A stretch of DNA of 63,960 bases, counting the filler, from Basidiobolus ranarum (Eukaryota): assembly GCA_040143965.1 (NCBI GenBank). It is 3 parts of 3 records of this genome, joined end to end, with 100 filler letters (N's around TTAATTAATTAA, not from the genome) between each part and the next. Parts side by side here need not be neighbours in the genome. Positions count along the whole stretch, not along the records: positions 1 to 22,728 come from JASJQH010007055.1; 2 more parts are not named here. One strand, given 5' to 3'. Below the pieces are notes generated by a model. The model worked only from the letters and a program-made list of their open reading frames with translations. It was not told the DNA's origin and ran no database searches. Below, piece after piece: positions 716 through 59,994 of this stretch. Made by a program: the position numbers and the translations under genes. Within the stretch, counting starts at the first letter, position 1, and each line of letters starts with the position of its first letter.

Positions 716-2514
716 CTACAAGAATTCACGAGGACGATCACCCTTACCACCTGCTTGATCAAATACAAGACCAGCTACCTTAAAGGCAAGCTCATCACAT
801 TCGTGACGTGTGGCAGCTTCGGCATAAACACGGACAACATCCTCGGTACCAGAGGGACGAACGAAAGATCTTCCGCTCTTGTATTTGGCGACTAGCTCAT
901 TGATTTTGGATTGTAATCCTTCAGGAGAGGTTAAAACAGTATCGGCTTTGGTGGTTTTGAAGATGGTACGGTCGTCAACTACTACTTTGACCAGACGACT
1001 GGATAAATCGGTGTATGCTTGATCCCATTCTTTCAAACTCCATTGACGATGAGTGAGAATAGTTTCAACGAGTAACATATCTGACATGGCATCACCAACT
1101 GCTTGATTGATTACTTCGGTTAAAGCGCGTAGTTGTTCAATAGCAGTGACTTGAGCAGGGGTACGGCCTTCGGTAGTATGAATGGTGCGCATAGCTTGTG
1201 GACTAAAGACAACAGTGCCGTGACCGTTTGCCTCGAAGTAGACACCAACATCATACTTCTCGGCCTCGTGATGGAGGTGCTTAACACCGGTGCATACACA
1301 TGAAACAGGGAGGCCAAGGTTCTTGGTGAGATATGCAGTAGAGTTACCATTAGCATAGGCAGTTTGGACAACTCCAACATTTACACCTTCTAAATGAGCA
1401 GATTGAACAAGCTCTCGGATATACATGGCAGCCAAGCCGGAGATCTTATCTCCATCCAACAATTTGAATGTTTTGTTATCTGAGTCGACGTAGAAGTAGA
1501 CAATACGATCAGCATCTCCATCGTAAGCACAACCACGATCTCCATACTTGAGAGTTAAACCGTGGGGGAGGCTTTGGTTAACCTTTACGAAATCAGCACC
1601 GCATTGGAAATTGAGTTGACCTTTAGTATCGATATCGTCGTTAACGATATTGATGGCAATGGTATCTTCACCAATAACATTAATCAAATCGCGTAATTTA
1701 GGAGCACCCACACCGTTGGCACAATCAACAAACAAGGGAGAAAGTCTAGGCTTGCCTTGGGTGAGTTTTTTGAATGCAGTGGCAAGTTTGTTGTAATATC
1801 CCTCCTCAGTAGGTTCACCATAAGCCTCAGGAGTACCGGCGGTATTCAAACAACGAACGATGTAGTGTAACTGGGGAGTAGTTTTAATCTGGTGGTCAAT
1901 AAATTGAGCATCAGAAGCATTTAAACCGTCAATCAAGGAGGAAACTAGGGCAGGTCCACTAGGTCTGGTATCTCTAGCAAACACAATTTTGGCAGGTTTG
2001 GTCACATCCACTTTAGCAACGGAAATGATTTTCTCTAGTTCTTTAACTAACTCTTCTTCGTTTGAAGCATTGGCAAGTTCGGTAGCATAAGCCTCCCAAG
2101 ATTGCTCCAACATTTCACCCAATGGGTCAACAATTTTAACACCGTTATCCTGAATAAAACAATGTAAGAGACTGAGGTATATATATATACATTTCAAATC
2201 AACCAAAAAATATGCACCTGTTCAGGGTTGTGGGAAGCAGTGATCATAATGCCTATGGTTTTACCATCAAGCTTTTTCGAACGAAGTACGGCTATAATAG
2301 CAGCTCTAAAGATGACGGAATCCAAAAGTTCAGCGCTAAATGCGAGAAAAGTTGATATTAATATGTGTGGCATACAATTGAAAAGTGGTTGATCAAATAA
2401 AAGAGTCTAAACATACTTCATGCGAAAACCAGCGGTACCATACGCAAAAGTGACGCCTTCTGGTTTTGGGTGGCTGGCAGAAGCTTGCTTGATTTTGTTC
2501 AGATCGAAGGACAT
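716..2514 (-). CDS. PCM1: Phosphoacetylglucosamine mutase (PGM3/AGM1), 3 exons (2514-2417, 2335-2218, 2149-716)
   Basis: [21 protein letters not shown] active-site loop across exons 2/3, DGDADR metal loop, FEANGHG, RPSGTED; GT-AG introns. Confidence 0.96.
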
Positions 2515-3157
2515 AATGATTACTTTAATGACAAAGATTCACTGAGTATAACCTAACGCAAGTCCGAAGCTATTTAAGCACCAAGTTGCGTGTATAATAC
2601 ATCTCCCGGGTCAGTACCCTTATTGGTGGTCAGTTCAAAATAGAACTTGATTGGCCTTGGCTGTATGGACCAAATGTTGTTAATGCCATCGAATCTTCCA
2701 TGTTGCCAATCAACATAAATATATGGCCACTAAATGCCACCATAATATATAATCCGTTGATTTCGGTAGACTAGGAGGAAATAACCAGGCATCCAGAAAT
2801 TAACAGTAATGTATATACATTACTTTATATATAAATCCATTCCAAAATCCAAAAGTGGAGTTGTTATCACTCAAATCTAGTGGCTTTGATATTGGGCTTG
2901 GTGGTTGTGGTTCCAACTACCCAATTATCACAACGCTAACTCTAAAAATAGTCGGCGCTAGGAGCGGAGGCAATGTGTTGTGTGTGGTGGTATACCTTTT
3001 ATTGATTTATATACAGGAATTGTTGATAGAATTTGTGATTGGTTCAAGCGGGATATTAAGAATATATAAGTAGACAACCCTATTTCACCAATGGCGAAGC
3101 TTCAGGTAAAACTACCGTTGCCATTACTACTACTGCTGATGCCACTGGTTCCCAGCA

Positions 3158-5498
3158 TTAATCCTTCAGTAGAGCTTGAACCACATTTCCAACACGCATG
3201 TTCTTCAAATCGGTATAGGTCTGGCCAGTTCCCACAAAAAGAATCGGCTGACCAGTGGTGAAAGTCATCGATAGAGCTGCACCAACCTATAACACAAAAC
3301 AGACGGATTAGGGACATTTCACTTCACTACATTTCAAGGATCTATATACCTTATCATCAATCGTATCGAATTTCGTAAGGATAATTCCATCGATGTGTCG
3401 AGGATTCTGAAGCCCTGAGAAATCCTTCAAGGCTTGATTGAACTTTTTCAGTTGATCAACGGCTTCGTTGCCAACCAAGGCTTCACCAACAAAGATGATT
3501 TTGTCAGGGTTATTTACCGAGACAAGCTGGAGAGAGCATACTAGCAGTTAGGACCCAGTGGGTGTGATCAAAAGTTTCCATGAGAACTTACCTTGGACAA
3601 TGCACGCATCAATGGCTCATTATCTTGCATACGTCCGGCAGTATCAACTAGCACGACATCATATCCATTTGTCTTACCTGGGGAAGATGGATTAGTCAAA
3701 TAATAGACAATATTGATAGATATTCTTTTCATACCATATGCAATGGCCTCTTTAGCAATGGTGGCTGAATCCTTGCCATAGCCTCGTTCGAAAAGGTCGA
3801 CAACCGCGTCCTTCTCAAGGGCCTTAAGATTACGAGCATGGACACGCAATTGCTCAACAGCACCAGATCTGAACGTATCACACGCAGCAATCAACACTTT
3901 CAAATTATTCTGCAAAAGCCAGAAGCAAGTCTTCGAGAGATTGGTGGATTTACCAACACCATTGACTCCAATAAAAACAATGCTATAAGGTCGGTTCTGT
4001 TGGCGTGCAACCGCAATGTCACGTAACAAGTCGACGGAAGTACGAGGAGTGAGAATTCTCTTGAGAGCAGATTCCATAGCACGCTTTACGGCCTTGGACA
4101 AACCTATGGGAAGGTACAATACACATCATTAGTCAAATGTGAACCATATACCACTCATTCAATCAAATCTTACTTTCAAAGCTTCCTAGTTTCTGGCCAA
4201 CGATGCTCTTAGAGACCGACTCGCACAGATGGGTAGAGATATCGGCGGCAACATTCTTCTTGATGAGATGCTCCTTCATTTGGGATAGAACGGGTACCAA
4301 GTCCTCTTCAGTGATCACCTTCTGCCCAGTTACTGACTTGAATAAAGACATGAATCGACTATCTGGAGCGGTAGTCTCTTTGTTTGACACCTCAAAGTCG
4401 CTCTCCTCAGACTCTGAAAGATCTTGAACTTCGAAAATTCCATCTTCAGAAGATTGCTTAAAAGCCTTTCTATCAACCTACGAGGATACAAACGAATTTA
4501 ACCGCTAGTTTCATCAGTCAAATGGTCTAGATTCGAATTGTTTACCAGTTGTTCCAAGGCGGGATTATGACCATGCGAATCTTTGTTGTCACTGTAATCT
4601 AGCCTATCCATCTGAGTTTTAGTAACCTTTCCATCATCCCACACTCGAAGCTCCTTCTTCTTGCTTTTCTTAACACCATCGCTAAAACGAAGAATAATTA
4701 GTATCTCTCTCCAGAAATTACTCATAGAGTCCATAATGCTTACTCGGATAGTACGGGTGATTGGATGGCTTTCTTCCCACGCGCGTTCTTTCCTCCCATC
4801 TTTGGTGATTTACGGGAGCGCAAAGCTTCAATATTCTTGGCAATTTCATCAGGATCCACTGCGTTGGTATCTTGCTTGATAGCTAGTTTGAATGAATAAA
4901 CAGATAATTTAGTATTGTCCTCAGAGTAGAGCATACAAGGGAAGAGTACGCCTGAATAAAAAATTATACTTACTTGACTTCACTTTGGAACCTTCTAAGG
5001 TATTGTTGAATTTCTTGGTCTCTTCAAAGCGTTTAGGGGCTCTAGTTTTTTTTGCTTGCAAATCTTTAGTTTCGACATGATGAAGAATGGTTTCGAATTT
5101 GCTATTGAATTCGATCTCGGGTAGGTCTCCCTCAAGCTTCACTTCTTGGCCATATGCTTTGCAAAACACTTGCTTCACAGTTTCTAAGAGCTCATCTATG
5201 TAGGTGAGTTGCAATATCTTTTGATAGACGATCTGAGGTTTGAAGAAGTGGGTTAAGAAAGATATTCCTTTTCGTGAATTGGAACTTAAAGATATCATAC
5301 CACAAATACGAGGTCTAACTCGTTAGCAAAAGTCCAATTTAATACGTAAGAACCATGGATGTAGCTATTATCGCCACCTCGTTCTTCGATCAAGACATCT
5401 TTAACCAAGGAGTTGATTGGGGAACCTTGAATAGGTGCATATGCTTTGGACCATAATACGATGCCACTTTTGGTCAATACTGTGATTAAATCTATCAT
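3158..5498 (-). CDS. SRP101: Signal recognition particle receptor alpha subunit, multi-exon
   Basis: N-terminal longin-like [67 protein letters not shown]; stop TAA at 3158-3160. Confidence 0.96.
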
Positions 5499-5850
5499 AC
5501 TGTCAATACGGACAACTAGGAAACGTGTGCAAAGTAACTGAGAGTAACAAGTTGGGAATTTCGAGAACTCCAATATCACTCAGTAAATTGTCCCTCAAGA
5601 GAATCGTAATTATCGCAATTAAGCTATAAATGGAGATTTAACCATCGAATAATTTGAACGGGAGAAGTGAATGTTCAAAATTATCGAGGTCATCAAGTCT
5701 GAACCAATGAACCACTTTCTATATAGATTTAAGCCAATAATTGGACGACGTGTAGTAGGGAATTCATTTTAATCAATTTGATATGTTTGACTGAGTTAGA
5801 CAAAGAAGTGTACAGCGATTCCTCTCTAAAATTGCTAGTCACAAAAATAA

Positions 5851-6099
5851 TCAATTTCGAAGGGGAAATATCATGTCTCCGGTAGCTTCATTTGGTACCA
5901 AGTGCTCTGGCTCTGGCTGACCCAAAATCTTCACCACAGTCAACCAGGTAAGATACGATCTAGGCTTGGAGAACTTCGAGGTGCGAGGGCCAACAGAATC
6001 ACTAGTAGGATCCATAGAGCTGGTGGGAAGAGCCACGCCAAGCACCCCTACGACTAGTTGCAGGGTAAAGAACAAAAGTGTAATGCGAATTCTTGACAT
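5851..6099 (-). CDS. Putative small secreted protein (82 aa), unknown function
   Basis: MSRIRITLLFFTLQLVVGVLG-VALP resembles a signal peptide; intronless; occupies the gap between SRP101 and APM1. No family recognised. Confidence 0.4.
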   Translation of the reverse strand: MSRIRITLLFFTLQLVVGVLGVALPTSSMDPTSDSVGPRTSKFSKPRSYLTWLTVVKILGQPEPEHLVPNEATGDMIFPLRN

Positions 6100-6556
6100 C
6101 GTAACAAAGCTTCCCAAGCTGCAGCTCGTCCCTTTTATTACTTACAATTGTGAGCAAGTGATTCTTAATAAACTCGGTCTAATTAGCATGAGACTGGATT
6201 GAACATGTCATTGGCTAACAATCATTGTATGGCTTATATTCCTTAGACCTCTAATCTCCGTGAGCAAATAAGGTGGGATGCAGGGTATTTCATCGACGGT
6301 AGATTGAACGGATCGATTGAATGGTTACTGAATTCATTTCTCTCTCCAATCAAATAATTTTATTTAACACCGTTTTAAAACTGATGGAAATCAGAATGTC
6401 ATATTAACGCTTAAACTAGGTGTGGTAAATGGAAGTTGGGGGTAGTGAGCAGTGGCAGTGGATCGTGAGTTAATATCATGTATATACATTCAAAGGGAAT
6501 GTGACTTTTTGCTTGTGATCGGGTTTTAAGCGCACATCATTGTAGCATCATCTGTG

Positions 6557-8500
6557 CTAAATAGGTGGCAACGAGCTAGGGCCCCCATTTCTGGTAGGCT
6601 CTGGCATGCGAAGGTGATAATCTAAAGAAGAACTGTGAGCTACAGCTAAGATAATATACAGACATACAGGAGATAGACTAACCTCCATTCTGAGTGATGT
6701 ATCTAACCCAAGGAAGAGCTTGGTATCCACTTTTCTCAACAACCTTCAAGTACCGAACTTGGATACCGGATGGAACGAAATAAGGGATTTCAAACTTGAC
6801 TGATATAGGAAGCTTTTTGTCCAACTCTTCTTCTGTTGGTGTAAGTATTGGTGATTAGTATCTGTATGTGGCATGTGATTGCCGTCGATATAACTAACCT
6901 CCTTTAACACTGGGGAGACTGAAGTGTGCGCGAAGAATGAACTCACGACTGCCAGGGAACTGCTTAATTTTCCATGCTATAGCCGACTTCTCTGGGGCAT
7001 ACGAAGCCGATCCCATAGAGCACTTGAATTTGGGTGAGGCAGCATCGTCAGGGACAGGAACAAGAATCTCTACATTATTGGCACTGGAGCGTCTTTTGAA
7101 TTGAGCCTTAGCCTTTAAACATATGGTTAATTACAGAGTCAAGGATTAAGAGATCAGGTCAGTGCGTACCTTAATCATATATTCGATTCTACCGGTGTGA
7201 TATTCGACGAAAGCTTCACACCAGATCAAAGGTTTAACCTACCAAGGGATCAGTAAAAGAGAGCAAATTAAACATGCCAACACCGTCCAATTACCTGAGT
7301 ATTCAATCTATAGCTCATCAATTCGAATTCACCATCCGGAGGAATAAACGAAATAGTTCTATCATTCTCAAAGCGTGACAAACGGACGCATTGATGGAAC
7401 TTGACATCTTCCATCTCGATGGCTTTTCCCTTACCAACGGCTTGGGACAACATACAGGTCAGAAGCACGAATTATCATTAGAGGATGCATGATGCACTTA
7501 CTTCTACCAATGTTCTCAAATAAAATCTTATCATTCAGGCCAAGTCTCAACTCTGGCATACCACTGAGGAAACAACGCATTTTGACGCTTCCAAGGATTT
7601 CACTTCTCAACACATTGCCATTAGCGTTGGCCTGGATAAAGAATCACACGGGATTTAATTATTAATCCTGCTAAATATAACAGTATAACATGATGCAGGT
7701 GACTCACCAACAAGTTGACCGACTCTACGACATCAAGAAACACTTCGTTCTTGCGATATCTAATTCCCTCGGTTCTCCAAGACACAGCGTTGGTAACTGC
7801 CATAGGGGGGCGTACTTGAACCTCAAGTTTGTAACCTTCCTGTGTAATATACCTAAAGAAATGATATCATGAGAATAGATGTCGAAATCACGAGGAGAAA
7901 AAGACTTACTCTTGAAGGACTTTTGTTTCAGTAGTTTGGGGATAACCAAAGTCCATCATCTCGTCAAGTAATTCATAGATGATGACAAAATTGTCACGGA
8001 TGGATTCCTCTTCAAGTGTCTTGAAATACTCTGTGAATACCTGTAAGAGAAGAAAAAGATACAAAGGGATTTGTTGAGTTTCGGAACCAATTCACTTCAG
8101 ATATCACTATAGTAAATACCTGAGTAAGCTTATGGAGAAACACCAATATGGTGGTAGCGTCAGAATTCTTTTTGGTAATAGCAAGGACTAAAATGAGGCA
8201 ATATTGGAGTTAAAGGATTCAAAAACAGGAGCTAGTTTTAAGTTCGAGTGAGTGTCGCATGACATTCCACTTTTTGGTATATATATATATTCAAAGGATA
8301 CGATAAAGATTGTTATGGCGAATGTAGAGATAATTGACTCCTTCGTGAGTAATAACTGGAGTTAGAGTTTGTTCTTCTTCCTCAGTTTCCAAAAGTAAAG
8401 GCATGAATTTTTCTACTGCCGTCATGGGAATATCTCCCCTGTAGTTACGAGAGATGAGGACTTTTCCCTTTAGGTCAAGGATGAAAACCGCGGAAGCCAT
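6557..8500 (-). CDS. APM1: AP-1 adaptor complex medium (mu1) subunit, multi-exon
   Basis: [116 protein letters not shown]. Confidence 0.96.
8188..8301 (-). other. U12-type (minor) GT-AG intron, intron 1 of APM1
   Basis: Minus strand: 5'ss GTATCCTTT, branch TCCTTTAAC (8209-8217), 3'ss TTTTAG. Splicing restores HNNLY-L-LAITKKN; read-through stops after RIL. Confidence 0.88.
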
Positions 8501-8855
8501 GGTCGAGATGTTCTTGAATTATGAGATAATCAAAAGAGTAGAAATAAGTCTATGAAAGTACTAAGAAAACCCGTGGTAGATAAGCTTCTCGATATGAAAA
8601 GAGCAGTAAGTTACGAAAATAGAATGTATGGCTCAAAGACTAGTCTTGTGGGCTTTTTTTCGAACTATTCAAGTATATACCAAAACAACCTCGGCTAGAA
8701 TACTCGAAAATTGATTCAAAGGATCAATAGTTGGTTGGCAGAAGTTTCCCTTAAGTGGATCAGATAGACAATATCGCAAGTGACGTAAAGCTCTGGCATT
8801 ATTAAAAAAATGGAGAGCATCCCACAATTTTTGGATCCGACAAAATCAATCCAGT

Positions 8856-8861
8856 TATATA
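8856..8861 (+). promoter_or_regulatory. TATA-like box upstream of the U12 snRNA
   Basis: TATATA 26 nt upstream of the predicted snRNA 5' end. Confidence 0.5.
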
Positions 8862-8881
8862 GTAAAGTGGTGGAAGTGCTT

Positions 8882-9028
8882 ATGTCTTAATTAATGAGTA
8901 AGGATAATAACGGATTTGGGTAATTCCAATCCTCATGTATAACATGAACCCAATATTTGGCGGGGCAGGTCGGCCTTGGTGATTCTGTGTCCAGTACTGG
9001 ACGTGGAGTCCCTCGATGCTGACCTCCG
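8882..9028 (+). ncRNA. U12: U12 minor-spliceosomal snRNA
   Basis: 5' ATGTCTTAA-TTAATGAGTAAGGATAATAACG resembles the U12 5' domain (human AUGCCUUAAACUUAUGAGUAAGGAAAAUAACG, from memory). Branch-site-pairing GTAAGGA at 8898-8904; hairpins GGATT..AATCC (8912-8932) and TCATGT..ACATGA (8933-8947); Sm-like site AATATTTGG (8952-8960); long 3' stem-loop CGGGGCAGGTCGGC..GCTGACCTCCG; 147 nt. Confidence 0.92.
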
Positions 9029-9047
9029 ATAACCTTTTATTGAATAT

Positions 9048-9872
9048 TTATTCGATTTCTATGAATCTCGCCCGAGACTTTGTGCGAATGAACAACTTTG
9101 TTCCCAGGGCAGAGCGAACCGTAGAATGTTTCTTTGGATCGGGTAGTGTGGGTACATGGTTGGATGAAAAGGGTTGATGCTGTGTTGAAGTCATTTTCCG
9201 CCACAATGTCATCAACTTCTTGGGGGTAAGGAATTTTGGATTGGTGAGATTTTTGGAGGGAAACAGAAAGCTGATGTTGCACTGAAATGTCAGTGGAGTA
9301 AAATGAACTTCAGAAGAGGCAGGCGAGACAGACAATACATGATAGAAGAAATCCCAATGGTGTTTCTGTTCTGTAAACTGAAGGTTTCCTTGTGGACGCA
9401 AGGGAATCGTCACGGATTTCTTCAGGAGATATTCAGCAAAGGGTGCCCTTCGAGTATGTTTCCGAGTAACCGGTAGACTTCCACCCTTCGGATCGCGTGG
9501 AGACGCTTGCTCAAATATTATCTGATCAACAGACAAGTTTCGTGGGTTTTTCAAATTGTATTTAACTGGGCCAGATTCAACGACATCGAAGACCACCTCT
9601 CCAGACCTAACATCGAACGTGGTAAAGTGCAACTTTGGCCAGTATTGCTCACTGCACGCCTGGTGCTCCTTTGGTATTAGGGATACTTGGGTTTCTTTCA
9701 AGAACTGGCTTATCTCTTGTTCCACGGCTAGGTTCCAATGTAGCAAAGATTTGGAGATGGTGAGTAAAGAATCGATATCTAGATACTGAAGAACTTCCAA
9801 CGCTATTTTAGAAGGGATTTGTTGAATTGGCGCTAATCGCTGCTTCTTCGTGGATTGTAGATTAGGAAACAT
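9048..9872 (-). CDS. F-box-like domain protein (274 aa)
   Basis: IQQIPSKIALEVLQYLDIDSLLTISKSLLHW fits the F-box pattern; intronless ORF. Confidence 0.7.
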   Translation of the reverse strand: MFPNLQSTKKQRLAPIQQIPSKIALEVLQYLDIDSLLTISKSLLHWNLAVEQEISQFLKETQVSLIPKEHQACSEQYWPKLHFTTFDVRSGEVVFDVVESGPVKYNLKNPRNLSVDQIIFEQASPRDPKGGSLPVTRKHTRRAPFAEYLLKKSVTIPLRPQGNLQFTEQKHHWDFFYHVLSVSPASSEVHFTPLTFQCNISFLFPSKNLTNPKFLTPKKLMTLWRKMTSTQHQPFSSNHVPTLPDPKKHSTVRSALGTKLFIRTKSRARFIEIE

Positions 9873-10230
9873 ATTACTGACTCCACTCTCAAGTTTGCCA
9901 CATCAACCGCTCTTTATAAGCATTTGAACAGCGATCCGAAATAATCCACTGTATTGTTCATGGATTATTAATGAGTTACAATTACTTGTGGAAATCTATA
10001 TGCACTTTCCCATGCACCTACACATGCGCCCACAATGCCAATCTGGGGTAAGCAATGTTTGTAGCAAATACAATCTACAAGCCCTAATACTCCAACTCCT
10101 GCATGTGACCAAAATATTCAGATTTATTCAAGACATGTGAGGGAATCATGGACGACGATAAATCAACAAGAAACCATTGAAAATAATTTAATAATTTAGT
10201 GATCTAGTGATCTAGTGATTCTTTAACACA

Positions 10231-11196: not shown

Positions 11197-12784
11197 TCAT
11201 GTCAACAGAAATTTGTTATTTTCGTAGTAAGTCAGCATGGGATTCTCACCGGAGAGGGTCTCGGTCTGCTCCACATCTGCGTATCTCTCCAGAAACTCTT
11301 TCTGTGTTATGACCTTCACCGAGCTATCAGGGATATCAGAACGACAAACAAGCTCGTATATATCACTGAGTAATTCAAAGTTAGTGGGGAAGAAGATATC
11401 GAACCAACCAGGCTGGACCATGTAGGTTGAACAAGGAACCATCGTTCTTTGATATCTGGTTTGCACCACAGGAGCATCTACTCCTTCGACAGAGTCAGGG
11501 AGGGAGTAGAAGTCTCCAAGAATCAATCGATGATTGGGGAAATGCTGCCTGAGACTTTCCATTAGGACTAGGGCTTTGGTAGGGATGAATTCGGGTGTAG
11601 AAAGGTTCAATCCGAACGGCAAGTAGTTACGTAGTCGTCGAAGGAAAAGCTGCTTTAGAGCTGGCGATTTGTATGGAGTGAGTTTACGCAGTGCGAGGTA
11701 TCTTTGAATCAAGGGATCAGTGACGGGTTCAAAAGCCTCTTCGTACTCTCCTTCATCGTTGGTAACAACAACACCCTGGAGGGGCTGGCCAGTAGTGACA
11801 TCATATCTGATCAGATCATGAGCAAAATTGTCCTTGAGGTTAGGAAAGGTTAATACACTTTGCAAGGAGAGAGATGGAAAGAATAGAATACTAACGATGA
11901 CTTCCAGGCCGATAAAGAAGCAAGGGTCAGTAACAGGAGCGTCCCAATCGAAAATCGATCGATTGATGATTTGAACACAGTCGTGAACGTTTTGTGCATC
12001 TCGGACCTCTTGTCGCTCAGCCTGTCGCTGGGCCAATTTGGAACTAATTTCGATGATCTTATATTTGGTACGTTGGTATACCGAAGGTTCGTACTGTTGT
12101 ATGTAATCGAGAATGTTAAGCATAAGTGTACCATTACCAGCACCCATTTCATAAATGATCAAATCGTTATGAGGATAACTGTTGAGCTTATACTCGGTCA
12201 CTATATATTTGGCAATGGAATATCCGTACCAAGGCTTTCAAGTAGCAGTTCAAAAGTTAGATACAAAGAATATTCTTTCTCTCTCAGATAGTCAAGCTTA
12301 CCTTGAACAATTCAGTGGGTGTATGCCAAACTTGCCTAGCGATGTCATCGATTTCATTGTAATCCGTCTCTACCTCTCGATATTTTTTTCCAAGAATGTT
12401 CATAAACTCCAGGTTATCTTTCATGATTTTGAAATCAAATTCCTCTTCAGGAGAGAAAATCACCGCCTGTTTTGAAAAGTATCCGTAGTTGGGGTTATAC
12501 AGAGAGTCGTCGATAAAGTCGCGTACCAACATGGTAGTTCCCTTTGGAGGAGAGATTTCTTTAGATACGTCCATGCTATTGACTCGACGATAATGAGGCT
12601 TAATTGGTTCGTCGTCTTGGTTTGGAAACAATTTGGAAGCATATGACAGACTACGATTGAGTGGTAAGTGTCTATTTGAAGTGACTTGTTTCGCTCTTTG
12701 ACAGATAAGAGGGAAAATGGGCTTATGAGCCCTTAGGGACCCCCTATACCCAACTCTAGTTAACGTCGACAGTCGTTGAAACAT
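11197..12784 (-). CDS. Mitochondrial NDUFAF7/MidA-family SAM-dependent methyltransferase, 3 exons
   Basis: Basic presequence; MLVRDFIDDSLYNPNYGYF, WHTPTELFK|PWYG, IYEMGAGNGTL, DIFFPTNF. Confidence 0.88.
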
Positions 12785-19565: not shown

Positions 19566-20579
19566 TTACAAATCGGCCCGAACTCCGAAACCAGGTCCGT
19601 AGGGTTCAGTGGTGAGGGTAGTTAATCCTGGGGCAGGTTCGCAGTTTTGACGAGAAGATTGGGGTCCAGCCTTGGGACTCTGACCCGCCTTCAAGGCATC
19701 AAGAACCTTAATAGTGGTTTCAGGAGTAAGATCCTCCTATAAAGTAATGGTTTAGCTTGGGTTGGCAAAACATTGAACTAGAAGTAATTCTTACAAAATA
19801 ATCATCGTTGACAGCCAAAACTGGGGCGTTAACACAGGCACCGGCGCATTCTACTTCTACCAATGTGAATTTACCATCCTTGGTAGTTTCACCAACTTTG
19901 ATACCAAGATGCTTTTGAACGGTGTTCAAAATCTCGGTAGACCCACATAACTCACAAGGAGTAGTGGTGCATACCTGAAGGAAGTATTTGCCAACAGGAT
20001 CACTGATGATAGATGATAGAAAAATAAAATTAATATTCATTGGAAATCCAAATAGCTTCTGTAATAAGGACATACCGGTTGAACATGGTATAGAAAGTGG
20101 CGACTTCGTATACACGCATAGGAGGCACTTCCAAGATACGAGCAACTTCATTCATAGCAGAGAGACTGGTCCATCCCAATTGCTTTTGTGCAAGATGAAG
20201 TAAAGGAATGGTAGCTCCTTTCTTATATTGAACTGGGTACTTGGCTATGATCTCATCGACAACCTTCTGATTCTCCTTTGAAAATTCGAATTTACTATTG
20301 AGATTGTTTACCGAAGTGTCACGGTGCTTCAAGGAAAAACAATGTGAGAAAGTTGAACTAGCATCAGCAATCATTAAGAAAAATAATCAAAGAAAAACAA
20401 AGGGCAGTGGGTGGTCAACTCAATGGAGAATATCATATTCAGAAGTCAATGTATGAAGTGGTTCTGCTTCTTACCACAAAAAGTTTGTCGGAAAGAGTGG
20501 CGGAGGTGGTGGTGATCTTTCTCTTGGAAATGGCAGAGAAGGTAGTAAGAGTAGGACGAAGAATTCTAGTGGAGAACAT
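19566..20579 (-). CDS. NDUFV2: Complex I 24-kDa Fe-S subunit, 4 exons
   Basis: [46 protein letters not shown]; ends GFGVRADL*. Confidence 0.96.
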
Positions 20580-21600: not shown

Positions 21601-22531
21601 TTAACTTATAATTCTTGCCATTTCCATTATAGTCCTGTTAGCTCTTTCAGCAACTCCATTTGGTTGAGATGAATAAGGGGCAGTAGTTTCTTGCTTTATT
21701 CCATGAACTTTGCAAAAGTGCTTAAATAGTGTTGAAGTACATTCTCCACCATTATCAGTATGTATTTTCTTGATTTTAGTTCCAGTTTCAGTCTCTACAA
21801 GTGCTTTAAAATCTCTAAGAATAGAGAGAGCTTCTTCTTTTCTTTCCATAAAGTAGACCTAAGTGTATCTTGAATAATCATCAAGAAATATAACTAAATA
21901 TCTATTTCTGCCTAAATATGAGTTTTGCATTGGTCCTCACAAATCTGAATGAATAAGATCCAATTTTTTGATAGATTTGATTAAACCAGAGTTCTTGAAC
22001 AGTTGCCTGGCTTGTTTTCCATATATACAACCCTCACAAATTTATATTTTGGTTGGGGGGTTAAATTGAATTCCAAAAATTAGGCAATTTTTAATTCAAT
22101 TTGTTCAAATAACCAAATCCAATATGGGCAAATCTCTTATGCCATAATTGAGCAGTTTCTTGACCGGAATAACTTTTTTTTACACATAAGCCTCTTGGAT
22201 TATAGGTAAGTTTGTGTAAGTTCAGATCCTTTTCTCCCAAAGCCAAATAATTCCCATTTTGATCAGTAATGGTGCATCCTGACTTTTCAAAATTGAATTT
22301 TAGCCCTTCTGAGGTGGCCTTGCACACAGATATTAAATTCTTGGCAATAACTGGAACATGTAGTACATTCTTAAAAGTATACACTTCAGAAGCCCCAATT
22401 GAATTGACTTAAATTGTTCCCATTCCTATAGCATTCAATGTGCAGTCATCTCCCTTGAAACCTTTCTAATTAGGATTACTTAACAATTCACAAACCAATA
22501 TTTTTCATTTGTGAAATGTTGGAAGGCTCTG
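21601..22531 (-). mobile_element. Decayed Ty1/copia fragment (protease, GAG-pre-integrase, integrase core)
   Basis: VDSRAFQHFT (degenerate DSGAS), NVLHVPVIAKNLISV, LWHKRFAHIG, HTDNGGE, PYSSQPNGVAERANRTIME; stops and frameshifts. Confidence 0.9.
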
Positions 22532-24009: not shown

Positions 24010-25303
24010 ATGGTAGCTTGCGAAGATGGGTGCCTTTATGTATATACATATAACGGGAAACGGTAATAGTGCGACGAGTTGTGAATTCCTATGCAATATT
24101 CTGAGCATTCTTTCATTTTGATTCCATAGACTCCTACCTTGTATGATGCTAGATGCGCCAGTTTCTTTTATAGACAGCTGTGGGGACTTCCTTATGTGTA
24201 TCACGGCTGTTGGCCTGTTGAGTGTTTGGTAAGTGGAATTCGAGTCTTCGGGGTAAACGATTCGACTAACTAATGAACTAATTCAATGTCGCTTAGGAAT
24301 GTCACACAGCAAACGGTGCTTATCTCTTCGGTTTCGCTATCACCTATTTTGCTCACTGCCACACTACCCTCGAATAGTCCACACAAATCTGTCAACATTA
24401 CATCGGCCATTGTTCGTTCACAAGGACTACCTCTAATAACTACTAGTGATGGCCAAGGCTACACATACCACCTTAATATGAAATCATGGGTTCGGATTGT
24501 CGATAGATGGTTTGTTGCCTCCGAGTTTTATGGCTCTACTAGCCTGGTTTCCGATGAAAAAAAGAACATCTTGTCTTCCTTACAACGAGCTGCCACTCGT
24601 AACTGTGAGGTTGAATTCATGCAAGGCCCATTCCCCCAAGCTCTACTTAGCACGGACCGTAAGGCACAAAGCGTAATCACCATGTCTCATCTAGAGGTAG
24701 ATATAGATTCCTATTTCTTGGATATTCGTAAGGCATTTAGGTTGTTAATTTTGATGAAATGAACTCTAGTCGTCACTGGAATCTTCCAAATTGTTACAAT
24801 CTCCCGCAGAATACCGTCATTGGTTATTATGTTATGCCCGGCGCCTAGCGGATGAAGGGGCGGAACTTCGTGCTGAGGATTTATGCCGGGAATTGCTAGG
24901 GCCACTCTATCGGTACTTCAATTTTCTTTTAATAACGTCATACCCAGAGCGCCTCATTCATTCGTCTAATTTCTATTCGTCATCCAGACTCAGTAGCTCC
25001 AAGAGCTTGACCACTTCGAAATGGAATCCTTTGATATTGGTAAACAGCATCAGTTGAGTTGAATGGAGGCGTTTCTAGCAATACTAAATTATCTACATTA
25101 AAGGGATTCCCTAAGCATGAGTTACTACGTGAAATCTTGCCTATTCTAGGTTTGTACACTCTTTCTCGCCACTTCCAACCCCCACCATTCAGTATATAAT
25201 ATGTTATTTTACAGGTGGCAACCGTTGTCTCCAGCGAATCTCCACCGAGTACAGCAAGTCGCTGAAGGAACTAGCGCCAGAAAACCCAATGGATCAACCT
25301 TAA
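24010..25303 (+). pseudogene. HIR1: HIRA/Hir1 histone chaperone, C-terminal domain only (5' WD40 part absent)
   Basis: VACEDGCLYVYTYNGKR|LLPCMMLDAP, YHLNMKSWVRI, ITMSHLE, SPAEYRHWLLCYARRLADEG, LCRELLGP, GGNRCLQRI; exons and splice sites intact, but repeat-like AT-rich DNA lies directly upstream. Confidence 0.8.
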
Positions 25304-36371: not shown

Positions 36372-39300
36372 ATGAGCGAGACACTGAAAGACGTACCAGA
36401 AATATTCGAGAACGAACTCAAAGAGTCGTTAAACGTCAGAACTGAAGGGTTAGGTTGTTATTTGCAATTAACAGGAATATTTACTGTTATTGGTCTCATC
36501 CCACCACTTACATTGATAACCCCCACTATGTAGCCGCATACAGAGAGTTGGGTCCTCCAGATCTTTGCCATGTACTGAAGTCCTCAGGAAAACAAGGAAT
36601 TAAAGAGGTTTGTAACGTGAAATATAAACCTGACTCCGTCAAGAATACATCACACTTTTGCCTTCTTGCTATTCATTCCTAGTTTTTCGAATTCACCACT
36701 TATGAATTTTACACACTAGATTGGTTCTTATCATCACGTTATGGGAATTGACGCCTCCTCTTCCGCTAGTCTTGCGGCATATATAAACTCTTTAACCTAT
36801 TCATTGGTAAGGCCAATTATTTAACTCAAAGTTAAATTCTAGAATGAACAAACCTATTGATGATTTTAAACCAAGGACGATCCACATGGTTGGTTTGGCA
36901 AAGGAGCGGCCTGGAAAATTAGCTCTGGGGTTTACTGGTAAAGCGTCCACAAATCTCCTTTTACAAGTATATTAACTTAATATTTACTTAAATACCAGTT
37001 GTTATAATGCCTTCTCTCGAGTTGATGTCCGTGTTGAAGTTAATATACCTGGTGGTGTATCTAGTTATGTTGTTAACCAAGCAGGAGAGAAGTATGTATA
37101 CTAAATTTTCAACTATTAGCTCTATCTCATAGTGCTGAGTATGAACCTAATTTTGCTCTATTAGATCAGAGGCAAAGTCTGAGACTTGGCACGAAGCCCA
37201 TATTTCATCAATCCTTCGTTCCTTTCTTTATTCGGATGATGAGAATTATCGTCTTCTAGGACTAAGAAAACTCGACCCAATATCCAATCTCAACACAGAG
37301 AAGCGTTTCCTTGAATCTGCTGAACGAGTATTCTTTAAAGGTTTGTCATGTACCACTATTGCAAAAAGTCACTGAGCATCTATCCATTATTACATGTAAA
37401 AATAGGCTGGCAACTTGGAAGTGACCCTATGGTCCAAGTAGCCACCAATGCTCACAACTATCTCACGGATGGACTGATGAAGTATTTCAATCAAAGCTCC
37501 CGATTTGAAACAGCAGCGACTTTTTTCGAGAAACATATCCTTTTACTTGATCCCTGTCTTGAAATTTTGAAATATACCTGTCATCATTAACTCGTCGCAC
37601 TATATACTAAAGATCCAGAAGTAAGTGCTCTTCTAGCACAGTCGTACTTTGGCATGGGTAAATAAGTAAAATGATAAACGTCAATTTACCAACGTATCTT
37701 TTGTTTACCCGAGAACTTGATTATAGATGAAGAAATCAAAGGAGTCCGCGCTTTACATCACGCTTTGAAGAAAAATAATATGAGTTATCCATTACTGCAC
37801 GTGCAGTCAGACTTCTTATTAAGAAAGGTAATTACTACATTCCAACTAGCAGAGAGAGGCACATCAGTAACGACGAAATTTTAGAAACAAATGGACATTG
37901 CTTTACAGTTAGCAAAACAAGCAGTCAATAGCGCACCTTCCGAGTTTCTCACTTGGGCCAAGCTCACCGAGATCTATATGGAAATGAAGGACTTCAAATC
38001 AGTAAGAGGCTCTTTGTTGATCATATATTAGATGCATCGTCTAAGTACCTTCCATTGTGCTAGGCTCTTTTGACTCTTAACTCCTGCCCGATGTTCACGT
38101 TTACCGATAGAGATTTTCCTCGTATGCCTCAACCCCTAAAGGTTCATTTACCAACAAAATTTGAAGGGAACTATGGTCTTGGTCCAGAAGAAGACAATGA
38201 AAAAGAACTTGAAGTAACAAGTTTATATATATCATAGATAATCGATCAACATTCTCTTAGATAAAAATTGCTCACGTAGGTACAATCTGCTCTTGTTAGA
38301 CTTCCTGCACCTTCACTAAGAGGTACATTTGCAGCTGCATACAATATTCTTACTCTTCTAGTTTCGAAGATCGGATGGGACGAACTCCTAAGGTGTAGAT
38401 CTACTGTATTCGTTATGGAAGAAGAATATCGTCTTCAAAAGGCGCAAGAAGGACATAATTATTCTTCTGATGAGGAATGTAACAACACTTCTGATAACGA
38501 TGATGAGATACCAACCAGTATGAGAGAGCAGCATGCTGCGACTGATAAAGAATCTGTCGAGCAAGATGAAGACTTAAAGGGGCGGTCAAAAACGGATGTA
38601 ACTTCTGTAGAGCTTGATGAGCCAGTTTTAGACACAGCTCCTGAAGTAGCATCTACAAATATAGATCCTACTGATCTGACAAGCCAAGAAAGCCCCCTAG
38701 AGACTGAACATGAAGATAACTTGGATTCTCAAAAGGCGGATGCTGATAAAAACTCTATTATTGGTAATATGGAAAGTGTCGATCTTGACGATGAATTGCA
38801 AGATGAAATCGATAACCAAAATATAGGCAATACTGAGGAACAAGAGACTCGCAAAGCAGAAGACATTGTAGGAAAAGAAACAGAACTAGAAAATACAACC
38901 ATCGAAGATATCAAACTTGATGATAAACAAATCGAATCTACTGTTACACTTGTAGAAGATATCCCAGCCTCGATGTCTGCTCGTAAGAATAGTAATCAAT
39001 CTGAAAAGGTACGAACATTTGGTATATCTAACTTTTCTACTTAATGTGTTAACTTGCTACGTAGACTGAACAGGGTAAAAGAGATTTCATCACTACTTTC
39101 AGTAACAAGAGACTTTGTGAAAGGTAATATTAATTGGAGTTTTTTATGCTCAGGAGTTTACTAAAGATACTTTCATTGCGAACGTATTAGATGGCTGGAC
39201 AATCTATTTATGGTCCTTTACGAGGTATGAGGTAGAATCCTTGATAGTTTCTGAACAATGTTTTAATTACTTTCCAAAGGATTTGAGAGCATATACTGCT

Positions 39301-39867
39301 TGGAGAGCCGAAGCTACTCATGTCAAATCTCAACATCTGACCTACTCTAAAACCGGAGCTGAGTGGGAAGCACTTGGAGATTTAGGACTAAGACTACATC
39401 ACAAGGTTTGCTGTTACAGTAAGAAAAACCACATGTGCAATATAGTAATTTCGTATATTAACAGGAAGAAGCTAAAGAAGCGTATCAACGTTGCTTACAT
39501 AATAAATTCTCGGCTAAGGCTTGGGCAAAGTTGATGAAAGTATATTCGGATGAAGGCAACATCCAGCAAGCACTCTCAGCAATAGCTCAACTTTCGGTAC
39601 ATAATGATAGATGGTACAATGAAATGGTGGTAAGTAGAATATTCACTGTGAGGCCTTTATATAGATTTCTAAAGTATGTTTTGTTTGATGCGCATATAGT
39701 ATCCGTCTCTCATTAGCAATATTTTGAATAGCCTCATTAAGAATCATGGACTATCTAAAGTTCAAAATGTCTTGATATCAATGAATCTACCTACTCCAGT
39801 CTACAAACTGATAACTCGACACTTCACTTACGCAGAAGTATTCCAAATAGAAGGATACGAATGGTAG
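36372..39867 (+). CDS. Exomer cargo adaptor, ChAPs family (Bch1/Bud7-like), many exons
   Basis: RELGPPDLCH, GIDASSSASLAAYIN, YCCYNAFSRVDVRV, ALLTLNSCPMF, IGWDELLRCRSTVFVMEEEYR, KRLCERWLDNLFMVLYEDLR, EWEALGDLGLRL. Confidence 0.93.
37535..37600 (+). other. U12-type AT-AC intron in the ChAP gene
   Basis: 5'ss ATATCCTTT, branch TCATTAAC (37584-37591), 3' end GCAC. Removal gives FFEK-L-YTKDPEV in frame; retention hits TAA inside the branch site. Confidence 0.92.
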
Positions 39868-43578: not shown

Positions 43579-44946
43579 GAAGACTAGACAAGTAACGAAG
43601 TTTGAAGAGTATCTGCACCGTATGACCAATTTAATTTATGAAAACCATTCTCACATCGAGCTGATTTGCCTTTGGGTCATTGAAATAGGTATTTAATCAA
43701 AATATTATGGAAAGTAATATAGAATGCTAAATAGTCATTTATCACTTTGCTAAAACACCATGACCAAAATCAACTCTTCTTGGAAATGAATCACAAATTA
43801 TGCCATCTACCAATGGGCCAAATCCTCATTAAAGTTCTCACCATCTGACCAATAAATGCATTCATTCAGTGTTTAGCTTGCGGAGAATGGATCGATTGTT
43901 TTTGTAAGTGATGCCAGTGCTCAAGCCAGAGAGGCAGAATTGAAATGTAAATGGAAACCCCGATCAGGACCCAACAAAGACTCTGGAGAAACACATCACA
44001 ATAGAGATATATGCTCAGGCGGTGACAACTAAGCGCAACGAATCCTGATCTGCAACGTATGACCCTCTTGTAATATCAGCCAGGTTCTACATGCTTGGAA
44101 CAACCCAATCTGAACCGTACAGGTGACAAACTCGCAGATCTCCAATCAGGTTGACCAAGTGAATCCGTAGCATGTACTCCTTAATGTGAATCTCTCTTTC
44201 GAATATGCTACGGTGAACGCTTCCGCAAGAGAACAGTCAGCAGTCGATGAATTGCGCAGCCACCTTTGTGCATTGATCAATCCAACCAATTTCATTCGCC
44301 GTTGGTAGCTTATCCACTGGTACAAAGACCATCTTGATTGAATGGACAGTGGTATTGCGGAAATCTTGACGAAGCCAGCGGAGTAACTAGAAAGTGGCAG
44401 ATTCTCCATCAACTGGAAGATTCTAGCAAATGCTATCTAATGCATGCCACTATTCTATCGGTTCTACTACGCCGCGCGATTTGACCAGCATTGACTGAAG
44501 AAGGAAATCAGTGATACATTGGGATTAGTTGATTTGACTATTTTGGTATGATTTTCATGAGCGACAAAGAATGAATGGTGCAAGGGATTCAACTCCGGTA
44601 CTGATTTGAGTTCCATCCCCAATCTGGATATTTGTGCATTGTTTGATATATTTCGCGCTGCGCATTGATTTTAATGTGGTAAAAATGTTTACTGTGGCTG
44701 ATGTTTGTAGTATCAACGACGACTCAATATGCAAATATCTATGTACATGAAGGGGAGGGGAGGGGAGGCAATTGCTTTCCTTGTTTATCCACCAAAACTC
44801 AGTTCAGCATTGATCACTGGTGATTTTGCGTAGGGGCAAAGGATAAAATAATCCTGATATGGGAAGAGTAATTACTATACAATTAATGTGGGTTAAGCAA
44901 GTCAATGCCTTGTTGTGAGAAACCAAACGCAAAGTCTTCTCTTGGC

Positions 44947-45527
44947 TTAGTGAACAATTACTCTGCTATCTTGCCAGCGGGCGGAAGTGGCGCTGGAGGC
45001 ATTGTTGGGAATGTCCTTGTTGAAGTGCTCACCATTCGATATAGGGGCCACTCCGGATTTAACCGTAAAAGTTGGCTTGAATGGTGAATCGGATCTTCGG
45101 ATTGCTGCACTCTCTATCACCATTGGTTCAGCTGAGTTTACCGCAGGTGATTGTGGCTGACTAACAGGAATGCCTGTATAGCAACTTCATAGTTTTTACT
45201 TATGATTGCATACAAATCATTACGGCATTCTGCATGCTATTCCGTTATTGTTATAATTCTATCCAAATTTTCTACGGAGGGTTGTTCAATAGTGGGCAAA
45301 ATAGCCATTTTGGAAGTAGATGGTCTTGATGGTGTTTTGGTTGAACTTTGCTCAACTTTTGATTTACTATGTAATTGGGGGATTACAATCTCTTCACTTG
45401 CACTATTGCTGGAAAGGAACACATCTGGTAAATTGATTAATGCTTCATCATTACTTGAGTTAGTTTCTGGCATGTTAATGCCTTCCAAAGTGGATAGTGG
45501 ATTGCTAGACTGTTCATCAATTAAGTC
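44947..45527 (-). pseudogene. 3' fragment of a Ser/Pro-rich low-complexity gene cut by the gap, possibly disrupted
   Basis: Open frame from the gap to 45237, then an apparent terminal exon after ATACAG (GIPVSQPQSPAVN...RVIVH*); no clean join found. Confidence 0.35.
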
Positions 45528-45627
45528 NNNNNNNNNNNNNNNNNNNNNNNNNNNNNNNNNNNNNNNNNNNNTTAATTAATTAANNNNNNNNNNNNNNNNN
45601 NNNNNNNNNNNNNNNNNNNNNNNNNNN
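45528..45627. other. Assembly gap (100 nt N pad with TTAATTAATTAA spacer)
   Basis: N-run. Confidence 0.97.
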
Positions 45628-47367
45628 CCAAGCTGATGGAACCATAGAAAGGTACAAAGCAATATTAGTTGCAAAAGGTTATTCCCAGACTCCAGGAGTT
45701 GATTTTAATGAAACTTTTGCTCCAATAGCTTAGCTTAGCTCTATTGGATCAATCCTGGCACTCTCAGCCATCCATAACCTTGATCTACATCAAATGGATG
45801 TAAAACCAGCCTTTCTGAATGGAAATTTAGAAGAAGAGATCTATATGGAACAACCAGTTGGATTTGTTGACCCAAAACATCCTGATATGGTTGGCAAGCT
45901 GCAAAATTGCTCTATGGACACAAGCAAGCACCCAAGGCATGGTAGAACAAGATAAATATCTATTTAGAATCACCAGAATTCCAAAAATGCACAGCAGATC
46001 CCAGTATTTACATCAAAACAACCAGAAAGAGGATCCTTATCTTGGCACTATCTGTGGATGACTTTATCATAGCCACAAATGATCTACAAGCAAGTAATCA
46101 GACAAAAAGCAGCTTATCAAACCAATTTCAGATTACTGATATGGGTGAATAAAGTTATTTTCATGGAATCCAAATCAAGAGAGATAAACCCAATCAGAAA
46201 ATCATGCTGAATCACTTTTGATACATCCTAGATTTCCTAAAACGCTTCAAGATGGGGAACAGCAAGCCTGTATCAACACCAATGAATCCCAATGTGAAAT
46301 TAATTAAAATTTCATCTAATTTGGCCCAAAATGGCTCAAATCAAAGCCAGGAGTTCCCTTATCAATCCATGGTGGGTAGTTTAATGTATACAATGGTTGG
46401 AACACGTCCAGATATTGCTGGGGCAGTGGCAACTGTCAGCCAATATCTCAAAAATCCAGGATCTGAGCACAAAACTGCAGTAAAATGAAAATGTAGATAT
46501 TTGAGCGGAACTGTAAATCTAGTTCTGGAATACTATGCCACCCCAGATGTGCAAAATTTTGAAGGCTACAGTGATGCAGACTGGGGAAGAAACCTTGATG
46601 ATAGAAGATCAACAACTGGATACACTTCTCTCTATGGTAATGGAGCCATAACTTGGAATAGTAAGAAGCAACCAACTGTAGCACTTTCCACTACAGAAGC
46701 AGAGTGATGGCTGCCTCTGCTACTACACAAAAAGCTATGTGATTAAGGAAGTTATTTACAGACCTAGGATACATGCAAAAATGTGCTATTACTGTATTTG
46801 AAGATAATCAAAGTTGTATTTTATTAGCTAGAAATCCTACATTTCATGCTGGAACAAAACATATAGATATTTGGCATCATTTTGTTAGAGAAATAATAGA
46901 GATTTATATAATTAAACTTGTCTATTGCCCTACTAAAGAAGTGATAGCTGCTATCTTAACCAAACCTTTAGCTAAAGCACAATTTGAATTATTAAGATAT
47001 AAGTGAGGTTTAAGAGAAATGTAAAATAATTAGTTCAGTGGGAATGTTAATATTGGGTAAATAGCAACTTATTATTTAGTAGTTAGTGTATTCATATTCT
47101 GATTATTTAGTACTCAATTCTATCAATCAAAAACGTGTGTTTTTTGCTCTAAAAGATATAAATATCAATTAGATCACTTTTACCAGTTTTCACTATTTTC
47201 TCAAAACTTCTCCAAAACACCTCAAATTTTCACCCATGCTGAACAGGCATGTTTGTTGTGATCCAAGCACGTCCTATAGACATATTCAATTTAATAAAAC
47301 TTAAGTGTCTAATTCCAAATCCAAATCTTGTCCAAAACACTTCCAAAACCCCTAAACACTTTTATCA
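45628..47367 (+). mobile_element. Ty1/copia element B, 3' half (RT, RNase H, PPT, 3' LTR 47045-47367)
   Basis: [49 protein letters not shown] then TGTTAA...TTATCA; followed by GTTTG. Confidence 0.95.
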
Positions 47368-49282
47368 GTTTGCTGCTTAATTCCATGTTTAGAAAAACAA
47401 CAAGCAAAGTCTTTAGAGCAGTATTCACTGCCATTTTCACTCCTTTGTACCCTTATTTTTTGAGTTGAATGTTTCTCTACTGTTGCATTGTAGTGCTTTA
47501 ATGTAGCTAAGGCTACATATTTTGATTGGAGAAAGAATAGCATAGTTTATCTTGTATTTTCATCAATAAAGGTCTAGGGTACCTTTTCCCACCTAGTGAG
47601 ATGTTTATCATGGGCCAACATAGGTCAGAATAAATCACAGCAGAATTCTGAGTCGATTTGATAGCTCCAGAGCCTGAAATGGTTGTCTGTGATGTTTTCC
47701 ATATGTGCAACCTTCACACTTATCCAATTTAGTGACATTTTGAATTTCCAAGGCTGAAACAAGCTGATTTTGGATCATTTGGGTCAGTTTTTGTTCCCCA
47801 ATGTGTCCTAATCTTCTATGCCATGCTTGACAGCTTGTTTTACTGGTTCTGGCTTAGTTTGTATGTTCAGAATGCAATTTGCTGATTTCTAGCTTGTCCA
47901 AGTTTTGAGTTCAGATCTCAGTAGCTAATTTAGTAGTTTTCTGAACAGTGATAGTGCATGCAGCCTTGCTAGACGCAAAATTTAGTCCTTCAAATGTTGC
48001 TTGGCTCACAGAGATTATATTCTTGGCTATATTTGGTACAAACAGTACATCTGCAAAGCTCCTGAATCAATATACCATGTTCCTGAGTCTTCTTGAGTGG
48101 TTACTGATAGGGCAGACACAGGTAGATGATCTCTATCAGTGCTTACTTGATTTCTTGTTCCCATTTTAGCTTTTTGGCAAAAATCCCTTTCTGCAATCTT
48201 TGATTAATTGGCCTGGTTTCTTGCAATAGTTGCAGATGATTGCTTTCCTATTGAGGGCACCATTATTGAAGTGTGTTGGACATCTTATAGCTCCAACAAA
48301 TGCCTGTTCTGCATTATTTAGCTGAGAATTAGATCCCCTTAATTCCTCATTCAAAAGCCTAGCACCAACATATTCTGTTGTTAATAGCTCAGACCTTGAT
48401 TACAGGGCAATTATGAGGTTCCCAAACATGTCTGGCAGGCTCCCATGTAGTGTTGTGACTAAGTCATTTTCATTTACAGGTGCTCCAATGGATGAGAGCT
48501 GATCTGCCATATGTTTTATCCAATATATATGATAAAGCATACAATCATCAGAATTCATCTGATTAGAGAATAAATTTCACCAAAGATATAGCCTATTAGC
48601 CAAATTCTTAGTTTTGTATAGTCCCTCAAGTGTTTCCCAAGCATTTTGGATGTTTTTAGCTGATTTTATGTGCCTCAATTAAGAGTCTCTGAGATGTAAA
48701 CCAAGTGTAGGGAGTGCTTTCCTCTGCTTCTTGTGAAAGGCAAGGACAACTTCCGGTGGTCCCTCTGGCTCTGTTCCTTCTCCTGTAACAAATCCCCAAA
48801 GTCCTAGTTTTCTAGCACCATTTGCATCTTGAACTTCCTAAGGTCAAAGTCTTTGCCATCAAACTTCTCTGTAGATGCAAAACCATTGGAAATATTACTG
48901 GTAGACATACCTTTAACTGCTAGCTTGGGGCTTATAAGCTGATTAAAATGCTCAGGGGACATGGAAGTGTTTGGACAAGATTTGGATTAGACACTTGAGT
49001 TTTATTGAACTGAATATGTCCTATTGATGGTTTACTATGACCTAGCACTATTGCACATGCTTAGATCATAATGAACATGCCTATTAAGCATGGGTGAAAA
49101 TTTAAGGTGATTTGGAAAAGTTTTGAGAAAATAGTAAAAATTGGTAAAAGTGATCTAGTTGATATTTCTATCAATTAGAGCAATAAACACACATTTTCAA
49201 ATGACAAAATTGCGGGCTAAATAATCAGAGTATGAATAAACTAACTACTAAGTAATGAGTTGCTATTTTCTTAATTTCCACA
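47368..49282 (-). mobile_element. Ty1/copia element A, 5' half (5' LTR 48940-49282, degenerate PBS, gag, zinc knuckle, start of integrase)
   Basis: CNYCKKPGQLIKDC, SENGSEY; LTR homologous to 61121-61472; PBS remnant GCTTATAAGCCCC; integrase broken at the GTTTG site. Confidence 0.92.
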
Positions 49283-49719
49283 TCTACAATATATTGAGCT
49301 GAAAGTAGAAAGTAGCCCTTTATACTTCTATGATGATGTAAAAGACCCAATTTGTATAATATGTCAAGGAAGGTTCAAAAAACACATATGCATTGCAAAT
49401 TATGCGTAATATTTTAGTGCAATATCATAAAGCTCATACTAAGAAATAAATAACTATGTAGATTTTAGACAATGATAAATTCATCAGAATTGTGCAAGTA
49501 TAGAAAAAGTATGCTATTGCATTTGGTATTAAACAAAACAATCTTGTCCTTAGAGTTCTTTTTCAAACAAGAACATTAAAAACGCACTGATGTGTCTCAT
49601 TTGCCTATATCTGGAATATCATCAAGAACTAAAGCAGATGTGGAAACTGGGGCTTTTGCTTCAGAGATTTGCTGGTATAAGTGGGAAAGAAAAGATGGTT
49701 AAAAATGAGCAAATAGTAA

Positions 49720-56300: not shown

Positions 56301-56304
56301 AAAT

Positions 56305-59990: not shown

Positions 59991-59994
59991 AGAG

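Follow-up and report, generated by a model that had tools for sequence, protein, structure and literature searches.

Among the small nuclear RNAs, U12 recognises the branch site of the rare minor introns, and the RNAs described by its Rfam model, RF00007, are found in animals, plants, some protists, and early-diverging fungi. The question raised by a short stretch of the genome of the fungus Basidiobolus ranarum is whether it encodes such an RNA and whether introns that would need it lie nearby. The stretch of DNA analysed here, called the window below, comprises 63,960 nt. Within it, the original prediction had described positions 8882-9028 as a conserved 5' domain followed by two short hairpins, an Sm-like site, and a long 3' stem-loop, and had assigned this layout to U12; each of these elements can be read in the sequence (Table 1).

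Table 1. Features of the U12 locus and of the two minor introns in the window
Feature	Position	Strand	Remarks
Possible TATA element of an snRNA promoter (TATATA)	8856..8861	+	21-26 nt upstream of the first base; putative function
U12 snRNA gene (very probable)	8882..9029	+	about 148 nt; 3' end at 9029 (Rfam) or 9031 (model R1); ends predicted by the models
Conserved 5' domain, including stem-loop I	8882..8911	+	stem of 5 pairs; carries most of the score
GUAAGGA (nt 17-23), branch-site-pairing sequence	8898..8904	+	read directly
Stem-loop IIa	8912..8932	+	8 pairs, one bulged U, loop UAAU; MFE folds
Stem-loop IIb	8933..8947	+	6 pairs; MFE folds
Sm-like site AAUAUUUGG	8952..8960	+	aligned to AAUUUUUGa by RF00007 and R1; putative Sm binding
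Long 3' stem-loop	8964..9027	+	folding
U12-type GT-AG intron, AP-1 mu gene	8188..8301	-	114 nt, phase 1; three homologue proteins
U12-type AT-AC intron, ChAPs/exomer gene	37535..37600	+	66 nt, phase 1; three homologue proteins

A search with the Rfam U12 covariance model, which had been proposed as the check on this assignment, came out in its favour, though at a score below the curated cut-off. Both strands of the window were searched, and RF00007 aligned end to end (model positions 1-151 of 151) with positions 8882-9029 of the plus strand at 49.4 bits. The E-value is 9.1e-9 in a 501-nt search and 1.2e-6 in the search of all 63,960 nt on both strands, below the limit of E < 0.01 that Larue and Roy 2023 give, in passages of their survey, for searching minor snRNAs with Rfam models (PMC10639083). 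A match of this kind is far beyond chance. When the window was scanned on both strands in E-value mode, RF00007 was the sole Rfam family with E <= 1, and in the 501-nt scan the next families at the locus scored 21.5 and 17.1 bits, both with E > 1. The curated gathering score of RF00007 is 53 bits, which leaves the locus 3.6 bits short; for this reason, a default scan of the entire window at the Rfam gathering thresholds returned 0 matches. By a hand count on the NC and CS lines of the alignment, standard pairs stand at 35 of the 42 consensus positions. The score is unevenly spread along the RNA. The first 31 nt supply approx. 36 of the 49 bits (about three quarters), and the 117 nt that are left without them score 13.3 bits, which is not significant (E 1.3 in a 188-nt search). 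It is thus mainly the 5' domain that gives the match its statistical weight.

A second covariance model, R1, was built from metagenomic U12 sequences, with the window sequence left out. A metagenome collection was scanned with a degenerate pattern of the U12 5' domain, which yielded 66 loci; ten were dropped, one (L021) as a chance match and nine as truncated, chimeric, or aberrant. The 48 unique full-length sequences were reduced by a redundancy filter to 25, and these were aligned to give R1. Compensatory changes occur in 18 of the 31 pairs that make up the RNAalifold consensus of the 25. R1 finds positions 8882-9031 at 52.0 bits (E 2.8e-10, a rough value), while no other place in the window exceeds 11.4 bits. 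Of the 31 consensus pairs, 22 are formed by the window sequence when it is aligned under the model: 10 as in the majority of the sequences, 4 changed on one side, and 8 changed on both sides. These last 8 indicate that pairing has been kept despite the altered sequence. The other nine pairs are not formed as aligned, and seven of them belong to the distal part of the 3' stem. The GGAUAAUAAC variant, which is the Basidiobolus type of 5' domain, occurs in none of the 66 metagenome loci (0/66), so that no close orthologue was found there.

The same collection held several unusual U12 copies. On contig L047, two lie in tandem approx. 280 nt apart (8761-8913 and 9043-9173) and score 147.6 and 87 bits with R1. 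In L041 (1463-1627), L020, L060, and L062, the U12 copy breaks off into unrelated or inverted sequence, and L041 folds back on itself; these four, probably pseudogenes or products of chimeric assembly, were excluded from R1.

Turning to the individual parts of the RNA, the locus begins ATGTCTTAATTAATGAGTAAGGATAATAACGG, and its opening 31 nt are nearly identical to the U12 5' domain, GUAAGGA included. In particular, AUGUCUUAA-UUAAUGAGUAAGGAU.. in the window stands against AUGCCUUAAACUAAUGAGUAAGGAA.. in RF00007, a difference of one missing and three changed bases. In stem I all five pairs are standard, with one U-G replacing a C-G, and no non-canonical pair is flagged in the cmscan alignment. 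The GUAAGGA sequence, which we take to pair with the intron branch site in U12, is invariant in all 25 metagenomic sequences. Paired by hand, it is complementary to the branch motif of each of the two minor introns (see below), and the CUC that follows both motifs, as read from the sequence, extends the pairing to GAG at U12 nt 15-17.

Downstream of the 5' domain, the sequence has changed more than the structure. The segment of stems IIa and IIb folds by MFE into 8 + 6 pairs (z -2.16), and in the R1 alignment eight of its nine consensus pairs are formed, seven through changes on both sides; in IIb, all four consensus pairs are kept with both sides changed. Judged from the alignment, stems IIa and IIb are preserved by pairing and not by sequence. 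The Sm-like site AAUAUUUGG is unpaired or weakly paired in the MFE fold and has the order purine-A-U run-G-purine, ahead of the 3' stem-loop, although it deviates in that one A interrupts the U run. The locus as a whole folds at -50.8 kcal/mol (MFE, z -3.03), and none of 200 shuffled sequences folds as well.

The 3' stem-loop combines a conserved base with a divergent upper part. Its folding energy is -34.4 kcal/mol (z -3.77) on the plus strand vs. -21.8 kcal/mol (z -1.62) for the reverse complement, and this far greater stability on the plus strand speaks for constraint at the RNA level on that strand. In the basal stem, which can be aligned with that of other U12 sequences, all seven pairs form. 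The distal 33 nt are divergent; they make a perfect 13-pair hairpin of their own with an apical GUAC and are treated as an insertion by R1. At the apex, the window has CCAGUACUGG where the 25 metagenomic sequences have the CCUACUUUUG type. Among these 25, an apical loop of the CUACUUU type is nearly invariant; from their CCUACUUU-type loop the distal stem of the window departs so far that UACU is all they have in common. The conserved apical loop of the U12 3' stem-loop is the binding site of the 65K/RNPC3 protein.

A distal stem and loop so unlike the consensus of 25 other U12 sequences might also be found in a U12-derived pseudogene or a silent extra copy, with the active gene elsewhere and the 5' domain kept because the copy is young. 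The same reading draws on the 3' two thirds of the locus, which are not significant by themselves, and on the statement, in passages of PMC11347168, that animals commonly have variant and pseudogene copies of snRNA genes. Against it, all stems are intact, and the differences in them are compensatory, not disruptive; all functional motifs are present in the sequence; and the 3' hairpin is strongly strand-specific. An unusual 3' stem is, moreover, nothing foreign to fungal U12, as the Lichtheimia paper states, in the part that deals with this RNA, that the last U12 stem is atypical in all basal fungi (PMC4133162).

The flanks of the locus bear on the same alternative. Upstream, a TATA-like element lies at -26 to -21. 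No A-rich tail was seen in the flanking sequence, and the sole direct repeat around the locus is 10 nt long with a 90% match, as expected by chance. With neither a poly-A tail nor a clear target-site duplication, nothing marks the locus as a retro-copy. Taken together, a pseudogene or silent copy appears improbable, and a working U12 gene is the preferred reading of the locus. A bacterial-type promoter and terminator scan, which is not applicable to a eukaryote, showed nothing.

The gene sits in a 548-nt gap between the ATG of an AP-1 mu gene (8500, minus strand) and the stop codon of an ORF (9048-9050, minus strand). AP-1 mu, itself with a U12-type intron, and the U12 gene stand head to head, 381 nt apart (window 8500-8882). 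On the other side, the minus-strand ORF (9048-9902, 284 codons) ends 19 nt from the U12 3' end on the opposite strand. No Pfam family was found for this ORF, for which the leads are weak and F-box-like; expression of the ORF would place its 3' untranslated region antisense to U12. Ordinary housekeeping genes, rich in short introns, occupy 716-6200, 11197-12237, 19720-20386, and 24277-25057 of the window; the set comprises phosphoacetylglucosamine mutase (a single long exon), SRP receptor alpha, a Methyltransf_28 protein, a 2Fe-2S thioredoxin-like ferredoxin, and a HIRA-like protein. A nest of Ty1/copia-like retrotransposons fills 44000-63960, with more at about 22090-22410. It is degenerate and runs in both orientations; its copies are 72-91% alike and carry Pfam fragments of RVT_2, rve, gag_pre-integrs, and SH3_retrovirus.

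Minor introns have the consensus RTATCCTT at the 5' site and a TCCTTAAC-like branch site. One form of this consensus is given in a passage of PMC2846911. Two introns of the window combine an RTATCCTT 5' site with a TCCTTAAC-like branch near the 3' end. Both had been predicted, in genes for AP-1 mu and for a ChAPs/exomer protein, and comparison with homologous proteins confirms the introns as well as the identities of their host genes. Taken singly, the motifs are less telling: RTATCCTT occurs 7 times in the window vs. 5.67 expected and is not enriched, and TCCTTAAC occurs 6 times vs. 2.33 expected.

The AP-1 mu intron has the 5' sequence GTATCCTTTG and the branch motif TCCTTTAAC (8217-8209). 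A 438-aa protein with the label B. ranarum matches exon 1 of the gene (8500-8302) at 100% identity; across the intron (marked by the slash), this protein and those carrying the labels B. meristosporus and Rhizophagus irregularis have HNNLY/LLAITKK. Since these homologues are continuous at this point, 8301-8188, which contains stop codons, must be removed. The branch motif deviates by one extra U, and the distance from the branch A to the 3' end, 22 nt, is long for introns of the U12-type class. The host gene of the second intron was identified by Pfam ChAPs. This intron has the 5' sequence ATATCCTTTT, the branch motif TCATTAAC (37584-37591), 10 nt from the branch A to the 3' end, and a terminal AC. 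It contains an in-frame TAA, and three homologues (P0241, P0242, and P0245) are continuous across it at FFEK/LYTKDPEV, so that 37535-37600 must be removed as well.

The remaining minor-intron candidates of a regex scan were rejected, as they lie in the copia-like nest at 44-64 kb or on the opposite strand of a gene. Chance matches to the minor-intron motifs in the nest include 46735-46772, about 55060-55084, and 56917-56954. Also rejected was a GTATCCT at 4489 (minus strand), since the SRP-receptor gene has an ordinary short GT..AG stretch around it. As for the ChAPs/exomer homologues, the C-terminal part of P0241 ('bud site selection protein, variant 2', labelled B. ranarum) reads through window 39050-39800, a sequence that is spliced out in the B. 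meristosporus and Rhizophagus homologues; the public gene model of P0241 probably misses introns near its 3' end.

That the locus is a chance resemblance, or another structured RNA or element sharing a short U12 motif, as a match under the curated threshold with most of its score from one short segment might suggest, is most improbable given an E-value of 1.2e-6 in the window (near 2e-3 for an assumed 100-Mb genome, E being linear with the sequence searched), the agreement of RF00007 and R1 on the same place, the fit of the elements in both order and spacing (stems I, IIa, and IIb, the Sm site, and the 3' hairpin), the absence of any better-scoring Rfam family (the next two having E > 1), and the presence of U12 substrates, namely the two minor introns, in the same window.

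The predicted identity of the locus is thus upheld by two covariance models (RF00007 at 49.4 bits and R1 at 52.0 bits), by an intact branch-site-pairing sequence, GUAAGGA, and by the two U12-type introns of the window that the homologous proteins validate. Positions 8882-9029 of the plus strand are very probably a genuine U12 snRNA gene, and on the evidence of the sequence we hold it highly likely that this gene, the single copy in the window, is functional in the Basidiobolus fungus. The original prediction went further in speaking of direct evidence of a minor spliceosome. What a U12 gene and its substrates offer for an active system is evidence of an indirect kind. The Rfam scan at E <= 1 found none of U11, U4atac, and U6atac within the 63,960-nt window.

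From the established knowledge of the U12 family, we infer how the RNA from 8882-9029 would work. An RNA of approx. 148 nt would be transcribed from its own promoter, possibly via the TATATA at -26 to -21, and an Sm ring would bind it at AAUAUUUGG. The RNA would then join U11 to form the U11/U12 di-snRNP, in which GUAAGGA (nt 17-23) would pair with UCCUUAAC-like branch sites of minor introns, leaving the branch adenosine bulged. Later, the 5' end of U12 would pair with U6atac in the catalytic core.

The functional analogue of U12 in the major spliceosome is U2 snRNA (Rfam clan CL00006), which likewise pairs with the branch site and with a U6-type RNA, through a branch-pairing sequence that differs from GUAAGGA. 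At the locus in the window, the best member of this clan is U12, and no U2-like sequence is present. With the U12 of RF00007, the locus shares the full-length match, the order of the elements, the near-identical 5' domain with GUAAGGA, a site of the Sm type, a long 3' stem-loop, and a size near 148 nt. It differs in the A that breaks the Sm run, in the unrelated distal 33 nt, and in the loop, GUAC instead of the CUACUUU type.

U12 genes of early-diverging fungi have been known from Mucorales since 2006-2014 (PMC2846911, PMC4133162); in the passages of these two papers that concern them, the genes of Rhizopus, Phycomyces, and Lichtheimia stand alongside a few U12-type introns. The Lichtheimia U12 is described there as having an atrophied third stem and a short last stem (PMC4133162), whereas the U12 of the window has a stem IIb of 6 pairs and a long last stem. 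Among the closest known counterparts is the U12 of B. meristosporus, which, according to passages of PMC11347168 and PMC10639083, shares with the locus the genus, the Rfam family model, and a minor-intron-rich context. The proteins of the window, however, lie closer to B. ranarum than to B. meristosporus entries: for three of them, identity to the former is 98% (501 aa), 100% (66 aa), and 96% (254 aa), and to the latter 87%, 91%, and 47%.

For B. meristosporus, the published surveys count, in the passages that give totals, 249 (PMC10639083) and 237 (PMC11347168) minor introns, the latter figure being that of Olthof et al. 2024. The same study, in the portion dealing with minor snRNAs, reports that several mucoromycote and zoopagomycote fungi have high-confidence genes for U11, U12, and U6atac, lists all three for B. 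meristosporus, and describes a divergent putative U4atac in that species (PMC11347168). Minor splicing is therefore not new for Basidiobolus. In the literature on Basidiobolus minor introns and U12 and on the B. ranarum genome, supplementary tables being outside the scope, neither this locus nor a B. ranarum U12 was found.

The main practical value of the locus is that of an example: a real U12, as it very probably is, falls under the Rfam gathering cut-off, and no new question is opened by it. As the score lies 3.6 bits below that cut-off, pipelines that rely on gathering scores miss the gene and may wrongly record U12 as absent. The locus may also serve comparisons of U11/U12 particle architecture, as it offers a U12 from a fungus in which the 3' stem-loop is divergent. 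It is conceivable, though unlikely, that the remodelled distal 3' stem-loop of Basidiobolus U12 (33 nt unlike the animal and plant consensus, a 13-pair hairpin, and a GUAC loop) goes with a different U12-65K/RNPC3 bridge and a different U11/U12 architecture, and that the head-to-head placement of U12 and AP-1 mu might couple their expression. Two minor-intron genes stand among the roughly fifteen genes of the window; this, like the adjacency of U12 and AP-1 mu, may be a coincidence. For the biology of the fungus, the locus gives a concrete case of a Basidiobolus genome in which the minor-spliceosomal RNA for branch sites very probably lies beside genes that depend on it, in agreement with surveys in which Basidiobolus stands out among fungi for its unusual wealth of minor introns.
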